This document shows positions 24,404 to 62,858 of a DNA stretch of 64,000 nucleotides, piece after piece; the stretch's first letter is position 1; the number at the start of each line of letters is the position of its first letter. This DNA is from Bacteroidota bacterium (GTDB lineage Bacteria; Bacteroidota; Bacteroidia; Flavobacteriales_F; PHOS-HE28). The translations under genes and the position numbers were made by a program. The stretch is from contig CAUJED010000023.1 in NCBI GenBank assembly GCA_963169535.1, forward strand, positions 8,030 through 72,029, given 5' to 3'. A model generated the notes under the pieces. That model had not been told where the DNA came from and did not search any database. It saw only the letters and a list, made by a program, of their open reading frames with translations.

Positions 24404-25047
24404 TTGATGGTCGCCTTACCTGACCGGTGGCGTTGGTTCAGCCCGTTGATCAGGTCCTCACTGATGTCGAGCCCTTTATTGCCCACCCAGATCTGTCCTC
24501 CGTTCTGTACGCTGAAGATGTAGTCGTAGCCGGCGGTGCGATTGTAGACCTCCAGGTAATCACGGAGTTCTTTGGTGATCTCGGTGAGCATTTCGGCTTC
24601 GAGCTTCGCGAGTTGTTCTTCACTGCTGGCCTGCTGGCTCTGGATCTTGGCCATGAGCTGTTGCAGTTCCTGTTCATCCTTGGCCACCTCGGCCTGGGTG
24701 CTGTACGTGTGGTCCTTGCGCATCAATTCATCATAGCGCGCCTGGGCCTTGCTCATCTCGCTCTTCAGGCTGTTCTCCAGCCGCTGCCCTTCGCTGCGGA
24801 AGCGCTTATCCTTTTCGGCGATCAGCTCATACTTCGCCTGCACGCTGTCCATCTGGAAGTATGCGATCCGGGCATCCTTCAAGCCACTGGTGTCGCGGTT
24901 TGCGATGGGCGCAACGGGCAGCTCTTGCGGAACGGGGTCGGATGTCGCTCCGGTCGTAACGGCGGGCTGGCGCATCAGGCTCCAGCCGAGCACGGCGGAG
25001 AGCACGACGTTCCAAAGGATGAGAAGCAAGGTGGTGTTCTTGGGCAT
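24400..25047 (-). CDS. OmpH/Skp family periplasmic chaperone
   Basis: N-terminal anchor/signal, then IAYFQMDSVQAKYELIAEKDKRFRSEGQRLE... coiled coil, then ...YDYIFSVQNGGQIWVGNKGLDISEDLI, typical of OmpH. Confidence 0.8.
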   Translation of the reverse strand: MPKNTTLLLILWNVVLSAVLGWSLMRQPAVTTGATSDPVPQELPVAPIANRDTSGLKDARIAYFQMDSVQAKYELIAEKDKRFRSEGQRLENSLKSEMSKAQARYDELMRKDHTYSTQAEVAKDEQELQQLMAKIQSQQASSEEQLAKLEAEMLTEITKELRDYLEVYNRTAGYDYIFSVQNGGQIWVGNKGLDISEDLINGLNQRHRSGKATIK

Positions 25048-25059
25048 GGGAGTGATAAC

Positions 25060-25088
25060 GAACGCCCCTTCACATGGAAGGGGCGTTC
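25060..25088 (-). terminator. hairpin downstream of the 700-aa T9SS protein gene
   Basis: GAACGCCCCTT-CACATGG-AAGGGGCGTTC: 11-bp perfect stem, 28 nt 3' of the stop at 25116. No strong U-tract. Confidence 0.5.
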
Positions 25089-25115
25089 AAAGGTAACGGT
25101 GGGGTGGTGAAGTGA

Positions 25116-50815: not shown

Positions 50816-50967
50816 TGCTCAAGTGCGCCTGCCCGATGAGGGCGCGGCCTGGTGCCTGTACGTCGATGCCGGGATGTGGTTACCAAAGTTACTGCGTCCA
50901 CTGCTGGCCCGGCTCCCTGTGAAGGTTCCGGCGTGCGATCCCGTCCGGGAGGTGCATCGCTACGTGG

Positions 50968-52338: not shown

Positions 52339-53505
52339 CTAGGATCCCAGGCCTCTCCGGGAACGGAGGTAGGTGATCGCGGATCTCCCGAGGGCGATGG
52401 ACGGGACCTCCAGGTAGCGATGACCAAGTCTAGCCACAAGCAGTACGAGGGGATAGAGGAGCAGCAGGCAACCAACGATGGCCAGGGGCGGAAGTGCCTC
52501 CCGGAGCCCTTTGCCCACCTTGTTCAGGATCGGCTGGTGGAAGAGGTAGAAGCTGTAGCTGACAACACCGAGCCTGGATAGATGCGCCCAAAGCCAATGG
52601 GCCCATCCCTCAGTGGCTATTTTCCACCGGCCTTGATGGATGCGGTCCATGGCCAATGCGGTGGCCAGGGCGCACAACGGGAAGGCCAAGTGTTGCGTCG
52701 GTTTGAATTGAGCGGAAAGAACGGTGAGGACAAGAACGAGGTCGAACCGTATTCGGGCGAACAGGGGGATCTTCTGTTGCATATGGATCTCCGACAGGTA
52801 AGCGCCGATGGACCAACTGGCCCAGAAGAAGAACGGGGACCCCCGTAACGCGAAGGGTAGCTGAGGTAGACCTGCTCGCGAAAGGAAGAATGGCAATATG
52901 CGTAGGAGCAGTTCCAGGGAAGCGGTCAAGATCAAGGCTGTTCTCCAGCCGGAGCGCCGAACGAGCATTAGAAGAAGTGGATAGATCAGATACAACTGTA
53001 TCTCTACGGCGATGCTCCAGAAGGATGGGTTGATCCCGAAGCGTAGATCCTCCCATAAATTCTGAACGGCGAACAGGTTGGCGACAAGCTGGGTCAGGCG
53101 TTCGAGGTTCATCCAGGGGCCACCCCACGGTGGGATGAACAGGAAAAGGGCGATCGCGAACAGGTAGGCCGGATAGATACGGAACCAGCGTCGGATGAAG
53201 AAACCTGCCCAGCCATCACGTGGATTGCGCATATGGCTCAAGTGAATGCAATAACCACTGATGACGAAGAAAATGGCCACGCCGAGGTAGCCCAGTGAGA
53301 ATGGATAGACCAGCAGGAATTCCCAGGAGTGTCCCCAGTCGCGCATTAGCCCAGCCCAAGGAAGTTTGTCGAATCCGAATGCCGGATGGAGGCAGTGGAA
53401 GCATAGGACGGTGAGGATCGCAACACCTCGTAGACCGTCCAGGTACGGCAGGTGGCCGAGGTTCGCACGTCCAGGCGAGGTGGTGATCTTTTCCAAGCTT
53501 GGCAA
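52339..53505 (-). CDS. acyltransferase family 3 membrane protein
   Basis: LPYLDGLRGVAILTVLCFH and about 10 TM helices. Visibly lower GC than its neighbours (three 60-nt lines hand-counted at 47-57%). Confidence 0.8.
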   Translation of the reverse strand: MPSLEKITTSPGRANLGHLPYLDGLRGVAILTVLCFHCLHPAFGFDKLPWAGLMRDWGHSWEFLLVYPFSLGYLGVAIFFVISGYCIHLSHMRNPRDGWAGFFIRRWFRIYPAYLFAIALFLFIPPWGGPWMNLERLTQLVANLFAVQNLWEDLRFGINPSFWSIAVEIQLYLIYPLLLMLVRRSGWRTALILTASLELLLRILPFFLSRAGLPQLPFALRGSPFFFWASWSIGAYLSEIHMQQKIPLFARIRFDLVLVLTVLSAQFKPTQHLAFPLCALATALAMDRIHQGRWKIATEGWAHWLWAHLSRLGVVSYSFYLFHQPILNKVGKGLREALPPLAIVGCLLLLYPLVLLVARLGHRYLEVPSIALGRSAITYLRSRRGLGS

Positions 53506-53655
53506 AGGTGCGAAGAACGGACCATAGAGGACGTGCCCATGGGATCGGTCGGGGATCGGGAACTACCTGCGTCCTCTGCCCGATCGAACCACCCCCCGCC
53601 GCGATCGGGGTGGTCCCACCTGATCGTCGATTTCATCACCTTCGCACGAAGACGC

Positions 53656-54171
53656 ATGGATCGAAAGCCGTATGATATCGCCGACAACGTGATGAGCGCG
53701 CGACTTTTCCGATCGATCATTTCCATGATCGTTGCGGCACACCTGATCCTCGTGCTTGCGTACACCTTACCTCGCGGATGGGTGCCTGACCGCCTGTACG
53801 CCTGGGGTCAACGATACACCCGACCCTGGTTCCACCAACGTTGGGCCCTGTTCGCACCTGACCCAGCGGACTGCGACCGAGTCTTGGAAGTAGGATTTCC
53901 CGACGGCACGTGGAGGCCGCTGATCCCGGCGGACCGACCCTATCTGGTGCGTCGTATGGCGCGTCCACTGGCGCAGCTGGTCTCCGATGATCTTCGTGCG
54001 GGTCGCACGGTGGATCCGGTCCTGGCCCGGGCTATGCGCGGTCTGGTGCGCGACATTGGACGTGAGGTGCCAGACCTACATTTCCGCCTGGTGGAGCGTT
54101 GCATCGTGGATCCGGGCGAGCCGGCCCAACGAATGACCAACTTGTTCATCCTTGATCTCCCAGTGCCATGA
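53656..54171 (+). CDS. DUF5819-like protein (usual partner of HTTM-domain proteins)
   Basis: N-terminal TM, then PWFHQRWALFAPDP, which I associate with DUF5819. 4-nt overlap with the following HTTM-like gene. Start at ATG 53656. Confidence 0.55.
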   Translation: MDRKPYDIADNVMSARLFRSIISMIVAAHLILVLAYTLPRGWVPDRLYAWGQRYTRPWFHQRWALFAPDPADCDRVLEVGFPDGTWRPLIPADRPYLVRRMARPLAQLVSDDLRAGRTVDPVLARAMRGLVRDIGREVPDLHFRLVERCIVDPGEPAQRMTNLFILDLPVP

Positions 54172-57028: not shown

Positions 57029-57060
57029 GGTAGGGCGCCAAAGGTAACGGGCACCGTGCC

Positions 57061-57516
57061 TTACCTCGGACTTTTCCCCAGCATGGAGGCCACCCAGAGG
57101 AACAACAGCATGCCCGGGTATTGCAACAGGTGCAACAGTTTCACGGAGACCAGGGCGAATGCGGGATGCAGTCCGCCGGCCAGCTGCAGCAGCAGGGCCA
57201 GAGCGGCCACCAGCGTGGTACCCACCACGAGTACGCGGAGGTAGCGGTGGTCGCCCCAAAGCACACGCGCCATGGCGATGGTGAGGGCGAGCATGGCGAT
57301 GATGAAGACCAGGGCGGCGGCCCATTTCAGGAGCACGAGCTGCTTCAACGAGAAGTCGGATACCGCAGCGGTGAAGGCACTGTGGGCGAAGGAGTAGGCA
57401 CGGTGGTGCTGGAGGTGGTCGATGGCGTAGTTCAGGTTCACGAAGAAGAACTCCCGGACGGCTCCTAGCAGTACCGCCAGCGCCAACACCATGGCGATGC
57501 CTATGCTGCGCCTCAT
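57061..57516 (-). CDS. exosortase F system-associated membrane protein
   Basis: 151-aa, 4-TM protein directly after xrtF with an ATGA overlap (57513-57516). Composition and position match the XrtF partner family (TIGR04127, from memory). Confidence 0.65.
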
Positions 57517-58070
57517 GCTTTGGACGGAACGCTCTTCGGCGCGAACCGCTTCACCCAGATGGCCCACAGGAGGAACACCCAGCCGTAGACCACCACATAG
57601 AAGGTATAGTCGTGGTTGAAGTTGAACCAGTCGTAGTCGATGGCCGCCACCACGCAAAGCACGGCCACACGGATGGCGTTGATCAGGTGGATGCTCAGCA
57701 GGCCCAAAGCCCCGAACCAAAGCTTGTGGCGCCAGGGACCGGGATAGGCCACCAGGAAGATGAGGTAGACGGCGAAGAGACTTACACCGTTGCAGGGGTC
57801 GCCGATCCAGAGATGGCTGCCCCCCTGGATGCCGAGGTACCGATTGCTATCGAAGCCGGGGTCGGGAAGCAACTCATGGCCGAAGAGCCGGAGGAGGCCG
57901 CCGGCCAGCCACACCAAGGAGTCGATCACGGCCAGGTCGAGGGTGCCCTTGGGGTGGAGCACCAACTCATACAGCAGGTGCCACGCGGTGTACAGCACGA
58001 TGCCCGTACCAAGGAAACGCACCACGGGGTCGGCCAGCACCGCACGCGGCGTGGCGGACAGGCGTGTCAT
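57513..58070 (-). CDS. xrtF: exosortase family protein XrtF
   Basis: About 185-aa polytopic protein with an exosortase-type catalytic arrangement: IGDPCNG (Cys), INAIRV (Arg), FNHD (His). The small size and Bacteroidota context fit XrtF. The ATG overlaps the stop of the upstream micro-ORF (TGATG). Confidence 0.75.
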
Positions 58071-58285
58071 CAAGCGGAGCGCTTGCGGCCGCGACGGAGG
58101 TCAAGGGCCTTTTTGCCGCCCAACAGGGTGCCAGCAGCCACCAGCAGACTAACGCCGCCATCGATCGGGATACAGGGCGGGGGCCAGCACGGGGGCGGGC
58201 CTCCTACACCCTGAGCCATCACCATGCCCGCGAACGGCAGGGCCATTGCGGCGGTGAGCAGGGCGAAGCGAAGCATGTTCTTCAT
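58070..58285 (-). CDS. 71-aa secreted micro-protein with a PEP-CTERM-like 'P-I-D-G-G' C-terminal sorting signal (putative XrtF substrate)
   Basis: MKNMLRFALLTAAMALPFAGMVMAQ (signal) | GVGGPPPCWPPPC | IPIDGG | VSLLVAAGTLLGG (TM) | KKALDLRRGRKRSA (basic tail). A perfect TAnnTTTG box lies 22 nt upstream. Confidence 0.65.
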   Translation of the reverse strand: MKNMLRFALLTAAMALPFAGMVMAQGVGGPPPCWPPPCIPIDGGVSLLVAAGTLLGGKKALDLRRGRKRSA

Positions 58286-58307
58286 GTGCCGTTATACGGA
58301 ATGCGGT

Positions 58308-58315
58308 CAAAGATA
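58308..58315 (-). promoter_or_regulatory. candidate Bacteroidota -7 promoter element TATCTTTG (perfect TAnnTTTG)
   Basis: Reverse complement of CAAAGATA at 58308-58315, 22 nt upstream of the ATG at 58285. Confidence 0.45.
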
Positions 58316-58410
58316 GGCAAACGTACCATTTCGGATCGGAACGGTCCAGCGTCATGGATATCCAAGATACCAACATCGGACAGGGCCGGGCTACTCTACA
58401 AGGTGGGAGC

Positions 58411-58418
58411 TATATTTG
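58411..58418 (+). promoter_or_regulatory. candidate Bacteroidota -7 promoter element TATATTTG (perfect TAnnTTTG)
   Basis: Located 67 nt upstream of the wzc-like ATG at 58485, divergent from the xrtF operon promoter. Confidence 0.4.
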
Positions 58419-58484: not shown

Positions 58485-60923
58485 ATGGCAGTACCCAAGC
58501 CCCAGCAACGGGGCAGTATCATCGATGCCAAGGACCTCCGGTACTTCATCCGGATCGTGTCCAAGAACTGGTATTTCGTGGTGATCGCACTGCTGCTTTC
58601 GGCGGTGATGTCCTACCTGTACAGCTACAAGCTGCCGGATATCTACGGGGCCACCACGCAGATCATGCTGAAGGACAACGAGGTGTACGACTACCAGAGC
58701 CAGGTGTACAAGACCTTGGGCTACCAGCAGTCGTACACGGACATCGTCAACCAGAAGCGGGTGCTCACCTCGTACGACCTGGTGGATGCCGCGCTGGCCA
58801 AACTCGACTTCGATGTCTCGTACTTCATCGTGGGTCGGTTCAAGACCACCCAGGTCTATGCCGCGTTACCGTTCACGGTGCACATGGATATCCTGGAGCC
58901 TGGCCTATACGAACGGCCATTCGACCTGCGCTTGCTGGATTCATTACGCTACGAGCTGAGTTTCGACCGCAGCGGCAAGATGGAGAAGCAGGTGTTCCGG
59001 TTCGATGAGGAGGTGCGGGATCCGGGGAACCAGTTCATGCTGCGGATCGACCGATCGCCCTACTTCAGCGGCGCCGCTTTGGAGCGGGCCACGGCCACGG
59101 ATTACCAGTTCATCAAGCACGAACGGAGCAGCTTGGTCAAGAAGTACAAGAGCCGGATCAAGGTGGAGAACCAGGAGTTCACCACCATTCTGGACGTGAC
59201 CGTGGAGGACGAGGTGGGGGTGCGGGCCAAGATGTTCCTGGATACATTGTCCAAGGAGTACATCCGCTATTCGTTGCAGAGCGAGTTCGACATCAACGAG
59301 AACACCATGACCTATATCGACCGGCAGCTGGCCGAGGTCACGGTGATCCTGGAGCAGCACGAGGACGAGCTGCAGTCGTACAAGGAGAGCAAGGATATCC
59401 TCAACCTCGGTCGCCAGGAGGGGTTGTACTTCACGGAGATGGTCGACTTCGACCACCAACGACGTGCGCGGGAGCTGGAGGTGCAGTCGCTGGATGCGCT
59501 GGAGGATTATGTGCTGAACAATAGCGATGGGAAACTGTTGCCTCCCGCGGTCTTCATCGCTGAGGATGCTTTCCTGAAGAAGACCCTGGAGCAACTCTAT
59601 TCCATGCAGATGGACCGGATCGAGGACCTGTTCACCGGGACCACCGAGAACATCGCGGTCCAACGGCTCGATTCCAATATCCAACTGAATAAGCTGAACC
59701 TGCTCACGTACATCAAGAATGCGCGCAATGCGATCAAGGGCAAGATCGGTGACATTCAGACGCAGGTGAACGATTATGAGGCGTTGATCCGCAAGCTGCC
59801 CAAAAGCCAGCGCGACATCCTGAACATCGAGCGGCGCATGCAGGTGAATGAGCGCATGTACCTGTTCCTGCTCGAGAAGCGGGCCAGCACGGTGATCGCC
59901 CGCGCGGGCATCATCCCCAAGACCAAGGTGATCGAGAGCGCCCGTGGCCTGGGGGTGGTGCGCCCCGATAAGATGAAGATCTTCTACACCTTCATGCTGG
60001 GTGGTGGCGTGCTGTCCATGCTGGTGGTCTTCATCCGCGTGATGTTCTATGATCGCATCGAGAACGCCGATCAGCTCAAGGAACACACCACGCTTCCGGT
60101 CTTCGGTGAGATCATCAGCAGCGAGAAGGCCGAAGAGAACTACGTGGTGGTGGACAGCGATCCCAAGTCGGCGATCACCGAATCGTTCCGAACCGTGCGC
60201 ACCAACCTGGAGTACGTGGAGGGCGAGCCGGGCAGGGGTAAGGTGGTGCTGGTGACCAGCTACCGACCCAACGAGGGGAAGACCTTCTGTTCGGTGAACC
60301 TGACCGCCATCCTGGCCAAAGCCGGGAAGAAGGTGTTGCTGCTCGAGTTGGACCTGCACAAGCCGAAGGTTGCCATAGGCCTGGGTATGACCAGCCAGGT
60401 CGGCCTGAGCACGGTGCTGGTGGGTAAGGCCCATTGGCGCGATGCCGTGCTCCCCACGCAGTTCGAGGGACTGAATGTGATCCTTTCTGGTCCCACTCCC
60501 CCCAACGCCTCGGAACTGATCCTGAGCAAGCACCTCGAAGAGTTGTTCCGCGAGGCGGCCATGGTGTACGACTACGTGCTCATCGATACCCCACCGGTGG
60601 GCCTGATCACCGACGCCTTGCTGATGATGCGCCACGCCGATGCCACCTTGTTCGTGGTGAACACCCGCTTCGCCAGTAAGGATCACGTGCTCAACGCCCT
60701 GGAGGTGTTGCAGGCCAATCCCGCCAAGAACACCGGCTTCATCCTCAACGGGGTGCGGATCAAGAAGAGCAAGTACTATTACAACACCAACTACGGCTAC
60801 GGCTACCGTTACGCCTATGGTTACGGGTCGGGTTATGGGTATGGCTACGGTTATGGTCGACGCTCCAAGAAGAAAGGTGAGGAGGCCAAACGCGATACCG
60901 ATGCCAAGACCCCGCGGGCCTGA
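58485..60923 (+). CDS. polysaccharide biosynthesis tyrosine autokinase (Wzc/GumC-type chain-length determinant + BY-kinase)
   Basis: N-terminal Wzz-like domain with two TM segments. C-terminal kinase with Walker A SYRPNEGKTF, A' LLLELDLHKP and Walker B VLIDTPPVG. Tyr-rich tail YYYNTNYGYGYRYAYGYGSGYGYGYGYG. Confidence 0.9.
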   Translation: MAVPKPQQRGSIIDAKDLRYFIRIVSKNWYFVVIALLLSAVMSYLYSYKLPDIYGATTQIMLKDNEVYDYQSQVYKTLGYQQSYTDIVNQKRVLTSYDLVDAALAKLDFDVSYFIVGRFKTTQVYAALPFTVHMDILEPGLYERPFDLRLLDSLRYELSFDRSGKMEKQVFRFDEEVRDPGNQFMLRIDRSPYFSGAALERATATDYQFIKHERSSLVKKYKSRIKVENQEFTTILDVTVEDEVGVRAKMFLDTLSKEYIRYSLQSEFDINENTMTYIDRQLAEVTVILEQHEDELQSYKESKDILNLGRQEGLYFTEMVDFDHQRRARELEVQSLDALEDYVLNNSDGKLLPPAVFIAEDAFLKKTLEQLYSMQMDRIEDLFTGTTENIAVQRLDSNIQLNKLNLLTYIKNARNAIKGKIGDIQTQVNDYEALIRKLPKSQRDILNIERRMQVNERMYLFLLEKRASTVIARAGIIPKTKVIESARGLGVVRPDKMKIFYTFMLGGGVLSMLVVFIRVMFYDRIENADQLKEHTTLPVFGEIISSEKAEENYVVVDSDPKSAITESFRTVRTNLEYVEGEPGRGKVVLVTSYRPNEGKTFCSVNLTAILAKAGKKVLLLELDLHKPKVAIGLGMTSQVGLSTVLVGKAHWRDAVLPTQFEGLNVILSGPTPPNASELILSKHLEELFREAAMVYDYVLIDTPPVGLITDALLMMRHADATLFVVNTRFASKDHVLNALEVLQANPAKNTGFILNGVRIKKSKYYYNTNYGYGYRYAYGYGSGYGYGYGYGRRSKKKGEEAKRDTDAKTPRA

Positions 60924-60956: not shown

Positions 60957-61841
60957 TTGCCAGGACCATTCACCATGGGTGCATCACGGTTGAAGTCGAT
61001 CATCAAGGACCTGGTGCCGCCGCTGCTTTGGCGTGCGATGCGGCCAACACCGGTCGCTCGCCCGGACCCGGTGGCTCCTGCGCCAGCCGTGCACGTGTTG
61101 TCCGGTGGGCCCTTGAAAGGGGCGCGGTTGCTGGTGGATACGAGCAGGGAGGCCTTCCGCGAGATGGTGGCCGGAACCTTCGATGGTCCCATCTGGACGG
61201 CGTTGCCAACGCCTCCACAGCACGGTCTGGTGCTCGATATCGGCGCCCATATCGGCTACCATTCCTTGGCGTTCTCCAGCAGGTACCCGGCCGCACAGGT
61301 GGTCGCCTTCGAGCCCAATCCGGCCAACAGGCAACGCTTACAGGCGAACCTCGACCTCAATCCCGCGCTCGCCTCCCGTGTACGGCTCATGGCATGTGCG
61401 TTGGGCGATACCAACGGTTCCTTACGGTTCAATACCTCGGATAATGTGGACGACGAGACGAGCTCCGGAGGTTACCTGGAAAGCGTGGACCCGCCCTTGG
61501 AACAAGCGATCTACGCGCGGTCGGGCTTCCGAACCATGGAGGTGCCGGTGCGGCGGCTGGACGACCTGGCCGAGGAACAACGCTGGGACCGCGTAGCGCT
61601 GATGAAGATCGACGTGGAAGGGGCCGAGCAACTGGTGCTGGAGGGAGCCGGAGCGATCCTGCGTCGCGACCATCCTTTCCTGTGCATCGAGGTGCACTCC
61701 GTGGCCTGCATGTCGGCCGTGGATCGTATCCTCCTCCCCTTGGGATATTCCATCCGTGTGCTCGATGGACATTCCCCCGGCCGGGCCCACATCGTGGCCA
61801 CTGCGGAAGGCGCGTCGAGGCAGGACGGGGCACGTGGTTGA
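60957..61841 (+). CDS. FkbM family methyltransferase
   Basis: VLDIGAHIGYHSLAF...VVAFEPNPANRQRLQANL...MKIDVEGAEQLVLEGA. Confidence 0.8.
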   Translation: MPGPFTMGASRLKSIIKDLVPPLLWRAMRPTPVARPDPVAPAPAVHVLSGGPLKGARLLVDTSREAFREMVAGTFDGPIWTALPTPPQHGLVLDIGAHIGYHSLAFSSRYPAAQVVAFEPNPANRQRLQANLDLNPALASRVRLMACALGDTNGSLRFNTSDNVDDETSSGGYLESVDPPLEQAIYARSGFRTMEVPVRRLDDLAEEQRWDRVALMKIDVEGAEQLVLEGAGAILRRDHPFLCIEVHSVACMSAVDRILLPLGYSIRVLDGHSPGRAHIVATAEGASRQDGARG

Positions 61842-61991
61842 TACGGCCATGGACCGGGGAAAGCCACCATGCGGTGCATTTCACGAAAGGGCAGGGGGCG
61901 TGCACCACGGATTCCTGCGTAGCGTTCCGTGCGGGGGGCTACATTTGCCAGCCCTCGAACGTACCGTGCGACCGGCGGTGCGGTCACGACC

Positions 61992-62858
61992 ATGTCCAGC
62001 TCCAACCAACGAACGCTCCCTGTGGTGGTACACCTGCCCGGGTCCGCCGTGCGCAACCCGGCGCGTTTGGTCCGCGCCCTCTTCGCGGACATGGTGGCCG
62101 CTGGCCCACTGGCCTGGCGTCTGGCCATGCGCGATGTGAAGGCCCAGTACCGCCAGAGTTATCTGGGCTACCTCTGGGCCTTCATCATGCCCGTGTCCAA
62201 CACTTTAGTGTGGATCCTGCTCAACTCCACCGGCGTGGTGCGGGTGGCCGATACGTCCATCCCCTATCCGGTATACGTTTTCACCGGCACCATGATGTGG
62301 CAGATGTTGGTGGAGGCCGTGCAGAGCCCCTTGCAGCAGGTGGGCTTGGCGCGCTCGTTCCTCACCAAGCTCAACTTCCCGCGTGAGGCCCTCATCATGG
62401 CGGGCTTCCTCAAACAGATCTTCAACCTCGGGGTCAAGCTGGTGATCCTGGTGCCGGCCGTCATGCTCCTCGGCGTGATGCCCGATTGGCATGTGCTGCT
62501 GTTCCCGTTGGCGCTACTGGCCATCATCCTGGCCGGTGGTGCCGTGGGCTTGCTGATCTCGCCGATCGGCATGCTGTACACCGATGTGGGCCGCGTGATC
62601 CCCCTGTTGGCCCAGTTCTTCATGTACATCACCCCGGTGGTCTTCGCCATGCCGACCGCAGGGTTCATGGCCAAGTTGTTCACCTGGAATCCCGCAACAC
62701 CGCTCATCCTCACCGGCAGGGCCTGGCTCACGGGGGGCGAAACCCCCATGCTGTCTCCGTTCCTAACGGTGGTAGCCATCTCTACCGCGTTGCTCTTCGT
62801 GGGTCTGTTGCTGTATCGGCTGGCCCTGCCCATCCTCATCGAACGCCTTAGCGCATGA
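61992..62858 (+). CDS. ABC-2 type polysaccharide/O-antigen export permease (Wzm-like)
   Basis: LAMRDVKAQYRQSYLGYLWAFIMP signature and 6 TM helices. Start at ATG 61992 (the track ORF starts at GTG 61929). Confidence 0.85.
   Translation: MSSSNQRTLPVVVHLPGSAVRNPARLVRALFADMVAAGPLAWRLAMRDVKAQYRQSYLGYLWAFIMPVSNTLVWILLNSTGVVRVADTSIPYPVYVFTGTMMWQMLVEAVQSPLQQVGLARSFLTKLNFPREALIMAGFLKQIFNLGVKLVILVPAVMLLGVMPDWHVLLFPLALLAIILAGGAVGLLISPIGMLYTDVGRVIPLLAQFFMYITPVVFAMPTAGFMAKLFTWNPATPLILTGRAWLTGGETPMLSPFLTVVAISTALLFVGLLLYRLALPILIERLSA

Follow-up and report, generated by a model that had tools for sequence, protein, structure and literature searches.

A probable dedicated exosortase system of the PID-CTERM/XrtX kind, built around a 71-residue protein, next to a polysaccharide export locus in a Bacteroidota genome

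We analyzed a 64-kb stretch of Bacteroidota DNA (64,000 nucleotides, here called the window) from a clade of high-GC Flavobacteriales MAGs that come mostly from activated sludge. Three tightly packed genes on its minus strand encode a PID-CTERM micro-protein, an XrtX-type exosortase, and a small membrane protein with about four transmembrane (TM) segments; polysaccharide export genes run divergently from them. No Rfam families or tRNAs were found in the window. The features are as follows.

58325..58318, minus strand: second, tandem -7 box, TACGTTTG, a Bacteroidota-type promoter box
58315..58308, minus strand: proximal Bacteroidota-type -7 box, TATCTTTG, ending 22 nt before the micro-ORF ATG
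58070..58285, minus strand: PID-CTERM micro-protein gene, 71 amino acids (aa), ATG at 58285 and stop TGA at 58072..58070 (sequence and NF046080)
58285..58211, minus strand: signal peptide MKNMLRFALLTAAMALPFAGMVMAQ, aa 1-25 of the micro-protein
58210..58172, minus strand: Gly/Pro spacer and Cys33-W-P-P-P-Cys38 loop (GVGGPPPCWPPPC), aa 26-38
58171..58154, minus strand: I-P-I-D-G-G, aa 39-44
58153..58115, minus strand: hydrophobic helix VSLLVAAGTLLGG, aa 45-57
58114..58073, minus strand: Lys/Arg tail KKALDLRRGRKRSA, aa 58-71
57513..58070, minus strand: XrtX-type exosortase, 185 aa (NF046081 is the best exosortase model)
57794..57792, minus strand: predicted catalytic Cys93, invariant in 21 sequences
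57671..57669, minus strand: predicted catalytic Arg134, invariant in 21 sequences
57614..57612, minus strand: predicted catalytic His153, invariant in 21 sequences
57061..57516, minus strand: XrtX-associated-type membrane protein, 151 aa, ~4 TM (weak NF046082 match and hydropathy)
58411..58418, divergent side: the Wzc gene's own box, TATATTTG
58485..60923, plus strand, divergent: Wzc-type polysaccharide co-polymerase/tyrosine autokinase, 812 aa (Pfam Wzz, GNVR, and AAA_31)
60957..61841, after the Wzc gene: FkbM methyltransferase (Pfam Methyltransf_21)
61929..62858: ABC-2 permease (Pfam ABC2_membrane)
62852..: ABC ATPase (Pfam ABC_tran)

In the micro-protein, the P-I-D motif abuts the hydrophobic helix, a basic cluster follows at the extreme C terminus, and a signal peptide occupies the N terminus. 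Hydropathy maxima lie at aa 4-27 and 37-57, and the Lys and Arg residues of the tail stand at positions 58, 59, 64, 65, 67, 68, and 69. The NCBIfam HMM for PID_CTERM (NF046080), which has a cutoff of 26 bits, gave a score of 32 (E value of 8e-08), aligning micro-protein residues 40-60 with profile positions 2-22 of 25; relatives of the micro-protein scored 24 to 28 bits. A sequence-only reading of this DNA had described the same 71-aa ORF, with signal peptide, Pro/Cys segment, IPIDGG, helix, and basic tail, as bearing a PEP-CTERM-class tripartite signal with P-I-D, and had pointed to a PID-CTERM model. Coordinates and sequence agree with that description, and the model exists and is the one whose cutoff is exceeded here. 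NF046080 covers the 25-residue tail alone, as a generic "domain," and 71-aa genes of this type are usually annotated "hypothetical protein."

The three genes overlap at both junctions. The last base of the micro-ORF TGA (58072..58070) is also the first base of the exosortase ATG (58070..58068; TGATG), and the exosortase TGA (57515..57513) overlaps the partner ATG (57516..57514; ATGA). For comparison, we drew on 80 related loci from genomes, one of which is truncated, leaving 79 usable. Every one of these 79 had a distance of between -4 and +15 nt from micro-ORF stop to exosortase start; the partner gene lay 3′ of the exosortase gene in 75 of them, 66 of the 75 with the ATGA overlap. A TAnnTTTG box was present 11 to 38 nt upstream of the micro-ORF in 71/75 related loci, the background frequency of such boxes being 0.02 per 120 nt. 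The overlapping three-gene unit and the box 22 nt upstream, both pointed out in the sequence-only reading, are thus conserved: micro-protein, exosortase, and partner form a conserved, tightly packed three-gene unit behind a TAnnTTTG box. Scans around the operon gave no sigma-70 promoter and no intrinsic terminator, a negative result to be expected in Bacteroidota.

Among exosortase models, XrtX (NF046081) scored best on the enzyme, with 168.1 bits, 1.9 below the cutoff of 170. Four clade relatives scored 169.5 to 178.7 bits, so the clade straddles this cutoff. The general exosortase/archaeosortase signature TIGR04178 gave 50.9 bits (cutoff of 23), while Pfam PF09721 gave 22.1, under its gathering score of 25.7. 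The enzyme is also encoded beside a PID-CTERM protein, the context of XrtX. An AlphaFold2 model (pLDDT of 85) contains five long helices; since no solved structure was matched by sequence or by fold (best E value of 1.7), structure contributes the helix count alone. The NF046082 match to the 151-aa partner was weak (17.3 bits against a cutoff of 75) yet collinear, spanning profile positions 2-143 of 147. Partners from clade relatives reached 21 to 39 bits and those of the wider family 42 to 70 bits. Judged from these alignments, the partner is homologous to the XrtX-associated membrane protein but divergent. Because both enzyme and partner score below the cutoffs, neither would receive a specific name under NCBI rules.

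We then considered conservation of the micro-ORF. Its retention upstream of the exosortase gene in relatives, which the sequence-only reading had proposed as a check, was seen in all 79 usable genome loci, where it lies directly upstream, and in 73 of the 75 metagenome loci whose sequence extends far enough upstream (GC content of 32-69%). XrtX-like genes without an adjoining micro-ORF were found at two loci, L125 and L137. Across 78 distinct DNA versions, the 11 residues CWPPPCIPIDG were invariant at the protein level, while all four Pro codons were used at each Pro position. The micro-ORF is therefore a genuine gene under very strong purifying selection, and conservation within the micro-protein is highest in the two-Cys Pro loop and P-I-D-G-G. 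A reading of the micro-ORF as a regulatory uORF was rejected, because the amino acid sequence itself, not merely the frame, is conserved across GC contents of 32-69%. In the family as a whole, both Cys residues are always present, spaced 3 to 7 residues apart, and an invariant Cys sits one residue (rarely zero) before PID. Within the helix region of the micro-protein, A52, G57, and K60 are conserved positions. The mature length estimated for 350 family members was 13 to 35 residues (median of about 21), a rough range only, since the crude signal-peptidase-site heuristic behind it misplaced some sites, the window's included.

The sequence-only reading had placed the operon divergent from a Wzc/FkbM/Wzm/Wzt locus. 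Pfam matches identify these neighbors as listed above, and the adjacency to Wzc is conserved: a Wzc homologue lay upstream on the opposite strand at 74/80 genome loci and at 39/80 metagenome loci, many of the latter with short flanks. By record titles, many genome loci belong to Flavobacteriales MAGs from sludge or wastewater; others come from marine and freshwater metagenomes. A tblastn search of a plasmid collection with canonical XrtX found nothing, and nothing was found in viral contigs.

Taken together, these data make it probable that the locus encodes a dedicated exosortase system of the PID-CTERM/XrtX kind, with one enzyme and one substrate, at the divergent edge of its family and linked to polysaccharide export. 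Dedicated sorting systems have been described as one-to-one enzyme/target pairs, regularly encoded by consecutive genes (Haft, bioRxiv 10.1101/2023.06.07.544157); the Cys/Arg/His triad of exosortases, which the window's enzyme keeps, is set out in the same work. Here, consecutive genes in a one-to-one relationship were found over about 150 loci, the 64-kb window, and 1.1 Mb of flanking DNA. The earlier idea that the micro-protein is the enzyme's dedicated substrate fits this one-to-one adjacency.

The following account of how the micro-protein is cleaved, what the acceptor is, and what the cysteines do is inferred. The 71-aa precursor would be exported by Sec, and its 25-aa signal peptide would be removed at VMA|Q. 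The C-terminal helix would hold the precursor in the inner membrane, with the Lys/Arg tail in the cytoplasm and PIDGG and the Cys loop exposed at the outer face of the membrane, where the two cysteines may close a small disulfide loop; their variable spacing and constant presence in the family are consistent with this. XrtX would cleave at PIDGG through a Cys93 thioester, the helix and tail being discarded, and transfer a Pro-rich peptide of ~17 residues with two Cys, expected as QGVGGPPPCWPPPCIP(ID), to an amine or hydroxyl acceptor. If archaeosortase A is a guide, that acceptor would be a lipid head group; it could instead be the polymer exported by the neighboring Wzc system. The 4-TM partner would have an accessory role as a subunit. 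What results would be a surface peptide of very small size, anchored by its C terminus, with a presumed role in capsule or EPS attachment, biofilm formation, or floc formation.

The orthodox sorting model leaves the conservation N-terminal to PIDGG unexplained. Since those residues are so extremely conserved, the loop could be part of the recognition signal, with essentially no cargo. It is possible, and we propose it tentatively, that the micro-protein is not cargo in the usual sense and that the two-Cys Pro loop and PIDGG are its working part. XrtX might then make a disulfide-loop peptide of ~15 to 25 residues whose new C terminus is attached covalently either to a lipid or to the polysaccharide that Wzc exports, and this peptide would anchor or prime a surface polymer.

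XrtX might also act on larger PID-CTERM proteins encoded at other sites in the genome, in the way that XrtA handles PEP-CTERM proteins; the adjacent micro-protein would then be one substrate among several, perhaps an accessory one. Classical exosortase systems are one-to-many, the NF046080 model describes just a generic tail, and one locus (L143) carries a second PID-type tail just upstream, interrupted by the contig end. We consider this rather unlikely. Apart from that tail, no further one was found in the 64-kb window or in the 1.1 Mb flanking about 150 xrtX genes. When the window's micro-protein was searched at full length against 5.8 billion proteins, only 237 candidates shared words with it, of which the 120 listed were 68 to 123 aa long. 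More than 3,200 protein clusters of the 5.8-billion-protein collection matched the family profile, and the best 120 were all 71 to 114 aa, in a search whose full micro-protein profile favors micro-proteins over large PID-tail proteins. One matching cluster has been named "PID-CTERM protein-sorting domain-containing protein" by NCBI.

The one-to-one operon with its stop/start overlaps is also typical of complex subunits, and the micro-protein, with almost no "cargo" and with conserved Ala and Gly positions in its helix (A52 and G57, besides K60), might stay uncleaved, serving the XrtX-partner complex permanently as a single-pass (or hairpin) subunit or as a pseudo-substrate, with the Cys loop as a functional periplasmic element. 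This we regard as distinctly improbable, given that the micro-protein's motif borders directly on the helix, in exactly the tripartite arrangement that marks cleaved sorting signals, that the micro-protein exceeds the cutoff of a sorting-signal model, and that the enzyme keeps all three catalytic residues. Another reading starts from three features: the very small size of the precursor, the presence of a cysteine protease in the membrane, and the invariant Cys close to PID. AgrB and AgrD offer the comparison for tail removal and thiolactone formation: XrtX would remove the charged tail as AgrB does on AgrD, and a small thiolactone ring (C-I-P-I-D, five residues) would form as the nearby Cys resolves the thioester, releasing a signal or RiPP-like peptide. 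It is highly improbable, as the variable position of the first Cys is a better fit to a disulfide than to ring chemistry, the conserved neighbor is a polysaccharide export kinase rather than a sensor kinase or receptor, and such a product has no known precedent among exosortases. Finally, that this is an XrtF operon, as the sequence-only reading had it, is scarcely credible and at the level of curated HMM cutoffs is refuted: JGI pipelines do label relatives "exosortase family protein XrtF," XrtF (TIGR04128) is the second-best model, and the order of enzyme and then small membrane partner is that of Fjoh_1448/1449 (PMC10936215), but the enzyme scored 76.2 bits on XrtF (cutoff of 90) versus 168.1 on XrtX, all 20 sampled 50%-cluster representatives scored higher on XrtX (128 to 211 bits) than on XrtF (at most 101), and the partner had no match to the XrtF-associated model TIGR04127 at an E value of ≤1 in NCBIfam, where one unrelated weak hit was its sole match besides NF046082.

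If the locus is a dedicated PID-CTERM/XrtX system, a 71-aa "hypothetical protein" is its key component. Exosortases still lack a known acceptor for their substrates, and a mature part of ~17 residues would be an ideal mass spectrometry handle for both the cleavage site and the acceptor. Since it lies beside polysaccharide export genes, the XrtX system could play a part in the formation of flocs and biofilms. XrtX, with its obligate micro-protein, also shows what to seek as targets of the sister enzyme XrtF; by extension of the tentative reading above, a comparable micro-ORF that has been overlooked so far might encode the XrtF substrate of Flavobacterium.

The trio is already catalogued in curated databases as PID-CTERM/exosortase X, and the window holds a further member of that system. 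The same three components occur in the same gene order in PID-CTERM, XrtX, and XrtX-associated entries (NF046080, NF046081, and NF046082; PF28310 in precomputed annotations), and wider-family members have the same micro-ORF. Relative to canonical members, the window's enzyme and partner, both under their cutoffs, stand at the family edge. No mention of the system was found in the literature searched, so its biology is undescribed there. [quoted passage not shown] The window's enzyme falls under the XrtF cutoff, however, and by HMM the two partner proteins are not related. While XrtF has no known target (bioRxiv 10.1101/2024.12.02.626408; PMC10936215), the putative target of the window's enzyme is encoded next door. 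The XrtA (EpsH)/PEP-CTERM system shares the tripartite signal, the Cys/Arg/His core, and an EPS locus with a chain-length/tyrosine-kinase gene, but it is one-to-many, with P-E-P and sizeable, diverse cargo, compared to one substrate, P-I-D-G-G, and a predicted mature part of ~17 residues here. In MYXO-CTERM and other Cys-containing signals, the signature region just ahead of the helix includes an invariant Cys, often with a second one close by (bioRxiv 10.1101/2023.06.07.544157), and in this Cys-bearing region these signals resemble the micro-protein; they differ in serving CPBP/Rce1-type glutamic intramembrane proteases, not exosortases, and in being carried by dozens of large proteins. Archaeosortase A (ArtA) with PGF-CTERM belongs to a homologous enzyme superfamily, although it is archaeal and processes many large S-layer glycoprotein substrates per enzyme. 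ArtA, for which a thioester intermediate and passage of the new C terminus to a lipid amine have been proposed (PMC7157517), is the mechanistic template for the processing suggested here.

The cassette and the TAnnTTTG boxes of the window are laid out as follows.

58285..58070, minus strand: micro-ORF of 71 codons (ATG at 58285, TGA at 58072..58070)
58070..57513, minus strand: exosortase gene (ATG from 58070, TGA at 57515..57513), encoding a 185-aa membrane protein
57516..57061, minus strand: partner gene (ATG at 57516, end at 57061), 151 aa with about four hydrophobic segments
58315..58308, minus strand: proximal TAnnTTTG box, TATCTTTG, 22 nt ahead of the micro-ORF ATG
57039-57046, minus strand: TAnnTTTG box 10 nt ahead of the glyA ATG
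58411-58418, plus strand: TAnnTTTG box before wzc
50884-50891, minus strand: TAnnTTTG box before relA/spoT
25088-25095, minus strand: TAnnTTTG box before the ORF ending at 25047
61940-61947, plus strand: TAnnTTTG box before an ABC-2 permease gene

Every element of the cassette described in the sequence-only reading was found at the positions given there. Base 58070 is both the last base of the micro-ORF stop codon and the first of the exosortase ATG, the exosortase TGA overlaps the partner ATG, and the TATCTTTG box has another TAnnTTTG box 10 nt upstream of it. We scanned one genome per species and obtained 80 related loci, all from Flavobacteriales/Bacteroidota MAGs (exosortase identity, 55 to 84%). 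This small ORF lies directly upstream of the exosortase gene in 79 of the 80; the remaining locus ends at the exosortase. In 79/79 genome loci, −4 to +15 nt separate the stop of the micro-ORF from the start of the exosortase gene. The exosortase and partner genes overlap at ATGA in 66/75 loci, and in 71/75 the micro-ORF start is preceded, at 11 to 38 nt, by a TAnnTTTG box (background, 0.02 per 120 nt). The window holds only eight TAnnTTTG matches, which equals chance expectation. The 199-bp divergent intergenic region contains three of them, and most of the eight lie 10 to 70 nt upstream of plausible start codons; despite their chance-level number, most look like real promoters. The glyA box, 10 nt ahead of the ATG, points to separate transcription of that gene, and the true start codon of the ABC-2 permease gene is probably downstream of the GTG at 61929.

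The micro-protein consists, in order, of a signal peptide (MKNMLRFALLTAAMALPFAGMVMAQ), GVGGPPPCWPPPC, IPIDGG, a hydrophobic stretch (VSLLVAAGTLLGG), and a basic tail (KKALDLRRGRKRSA). The PID-CTERM model named in the sequence-only reading exists (NCBIfam NF046080), and the window micro-protein scored 32 bits against it (cutoff, 26). A Pfam-A search in which PF28310 was not among the models gave no match. Across the genome loci, the block CWPPPCIPIDG is one protein sequence written in 78 ways at the DNA level; each Pro uses all four of its codons, and both Cys codons, both Asp codons, and all three Ile codons occur. Such codon variety behind an invariant peptide is the mark of a translated gene whose product is under strong purifying selection, and it rules out both a chance ORF and a purely regulatory upstream ORF. 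A few exceptions are seen in a set of 120 close homologues (P0238, P0147, and P0227): one lacks CWPPP (GGSPPCIPIDGG), one has PIA for PID, and one has PVD. Assembly errors could explain these, as could tolerated changes.

We also scanned metagenome contigs with a profile of XrtX representatives that share only 35 to 47% identity with the window enzyme. A micro-ORF of this kind was present in 73 of the 75 loci whose upstream DNA was long enough. GC content of the metagenome loci ranges from 32% to 69%. Their micro-proteins are mostly 67 to 80 aa and share a constant layout: signal peptide, Gly/Pro-rich spacer of variable length, two Cys, P-[IV]-D-G-G, helix, and Lys/Arg tail. The loop is CWPPPC (n = 45), CIPPPC (n = 9), CFPPPC (n = 6), or a rarer type such as CFPAC or CTPFPQC; 7-residue loops (e.g., CGPPFGPPC) in four loci adjoin PIDGG without a gap. 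The second Cys is always 0 to 1 residue ahead of the Pro of PID, and the first is 3 to 7 residues ahead of the second. In three loci (L127, L132, and L141; micro-ORF just upstream of 5001), P-V-N-S-G replaces P-I-D-G-G and a different helix follows (CWPPPCIPVNSGLIYALGAALLFGVYAIYKSVKSRKAA), so Asp and Gly-Gly are not absolutely required. Searching a protein collection with a profile of the micro-protein family gave over 3,221 matching clusters (90% identity). The best 120 of these are all 71 to 114 aa, and one is named "PID-CTERM protein-sorting domain-containing protein" by NCBI; all 120, and nearly all of the 240 micro-proteins listed, carry a precomputed Pfam match to PF28310 (PF28310.1).

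No micro-ORF adjoins two XrtX-like genes, in L137 (5001-5561) and L125 (360-920). In L137 the partner is missing as well, and the gene is flanked by secG upstream and a convergent DEAD-box helicase gene downstream. The substrate may be encoded at another site, or the enzyme may be an orphan. No second PID tail was found in the 64-kb window, and a tail HMM run over 1.1 Mb around ~150 xrtX genes detected only micro-ORFs and one extra truncated tail. The latter (L143, 2-100, plus strand; ...DGGIGFLIIAGLGLGAKKILNYRKYINSQ) ends ~40 nt before the regular micro-ORF, its 5′ part lying beyond the contig start. It may represent a second micro-protein in tandem, or the C terminus of a larger PID-CTERM protein.

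The sequence-only reading had taken the cassette for an xrtF operon. Its exosortase assignment held, as the 185-aa protein scored 50.9 bits against the NCBIfam exosortase/archaeosortase signature TIGR04178 (cutoff, 23); the XrtF label did not, as the enzyme scored 76.2 bits against TIGR04128 (cutoff, 90). The best specific model was XrtX (NF046081), although at 168.1 bits the protein fell below the cutoff of 170. Same-clade relatives scored 169.5 to 178.7 bits on this model, and twenty 50%-identity cluster representatives sampled from an exhaustive search scored 128 to 211 on XrtX, against XrtF scores of 101 or less. The 151-aa partner scored 17.3 bits against the XrtX-associated membrane protein NF046082 (cutoff, 75) in an alignment that was weak yet end to end (profile positions 2-143 of 147), and had no match to the XrtF-associated family in NCBIfam; partners of same-clade relatives reached 21 to 39 bits and those from more distant loci 42 to 70. 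By these scores of enzyme, partner, and relatives, the cassette is an XrtX/PID-CTERM system at the family's divergent edge, and an XrtF operon is ruled out by the TIGR04128 score and the partner's lack of an XrtF-associated match.

Cys93 (DPCNG), Arg134 (N-x-x-R), and His153 (FNHDY) are invariant in 21 aligned enzymes; exosortases and archaeosortases have been proposed to use this Cys/Arg/His triad (bioRxiv 10.1101/2023.06.07.544157). An AlphaFold2 model (pLDDT 85, pTM 0.77) contains five long helices and a short hairpin preceding the Cys93 helix, and neither sequence nor fold searches found a solved structure resembling the enzyme. In 123 partner sequences, the few conserved positions (G18, R21, F25, N29, K64, W65, Q132, and P134) form no obvious catalytic motif, and we therefore regard the partner as a putative accessory subunit.

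Divergently upstream of the cassette lie a gene for a Wzc-type co-polymerase/tyrosine kinase (Wzz, GNVR, and P-loop domains), an FkbM methyltransferase gene, and an ABC-2 permease/ATPase pair, confirming by domain content the export locus proposed earlier. An opposite-strand upstream Wzc homologue is common in relatives (74/80 genome loci and 39/80 metagenome loci, many of the latter with short flanks). Over all 160 loci, Wzc occurs in 113 and the partner, in two clusters, in up to 135; with those clusters counted apart, Wzc is the most widely shared family after the exosortase. A serine hydroxymethyltransferase gene follows the cassette in 75 loci. The Wzc-like C terminus in the window (60780-60923, plus strand) has an unusual Gly-Tyr repeat (YYYNTNYGYGYRYAYGYGSGYGYGYGYG), presumably an autophosphorylated Tyr cluster, and then a Lys-rich end. 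Beyond glyA, an HTTM-domain membrane protein (PF05090; 54168-54986, plus strand, overlapped by an ORF at 53452-54171, plus strand) is encoded near the cassette in 38/160 loci.

About 29 low-GC metagenome loci, marine or freshwater, encode a large same-strand protein between Wzc and the cassette, directly upstream of the micro-ORF (L148, 1571-4762, plus strand, and 28 others, e.g., L085, L088, L092, L122, and L133); the window's clade lacks it. Full-length copies are about 880 to 1060 aa, and their C terminus (...GVYFVTV.INGxxxTEKVILK) resembles, by eye, a type IX secretion sorting domain. Through this protein, the XrtX system may be connected with T9SS cargo; biofilm phenotypes are common to the xrtF and T9SS mutants of F. 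johnsoniae (PMC10936215).

The observed block of three genes and promoter, selected peptide, sorting-signal layout, catalytic residues, and link to polysaccharide export can be combined in a probable route. The precursor would be exported by Sec, cut at VMA|Q, and retained in the membrane by its C-terminal helix with the basic tail inside. The two Cys would pair as a disulfide; being always present at variable spacing, they fit a structural role better than fixed-ring chemistry. XrtX would then cleave at PIDGG via a Cys93 thioester and pass the Pro-rich peptide of ~17 residues to an acceptor. For archaeosortase A, the model has the thioester attacked by the amine of a lipid ethanolamine (PMC7157517). 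On this analogy, and with a Wzc gene conserved next door, a lipid or the exported polymer is a candidate acceptor. As the spacer is variable and of low complexity and the loop beside the cleavage motif invariant, the loop together with the new C terminus, not a folded cargo domain, appears to be the working entity.

A search of 8 million PMC papers and of bioRxiv found no mention of PID-CTERM, XrtX, their accession numbers, or the CWPPPC motif, and XrtF papers call the targets of that enzyme unknown (PMC10936215; bioRxiv 10.1101/2024.12.02.626408). Curated families already cover all three proteins (NF046080, NF046081, and NF046082), as does a Pfam family for the micro-protein, so this kind of system is known to annotators. 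Under NCBI cutoffs, the window enzyme would receive a generic name and the partner none. Despite the existing curation, it is noteworthy, and of use to experimenters, how extremely minimal and conserved the substrate is; by its model scores, the window cassette is a new, divergent member of the PID-CTERM/XrtX system.
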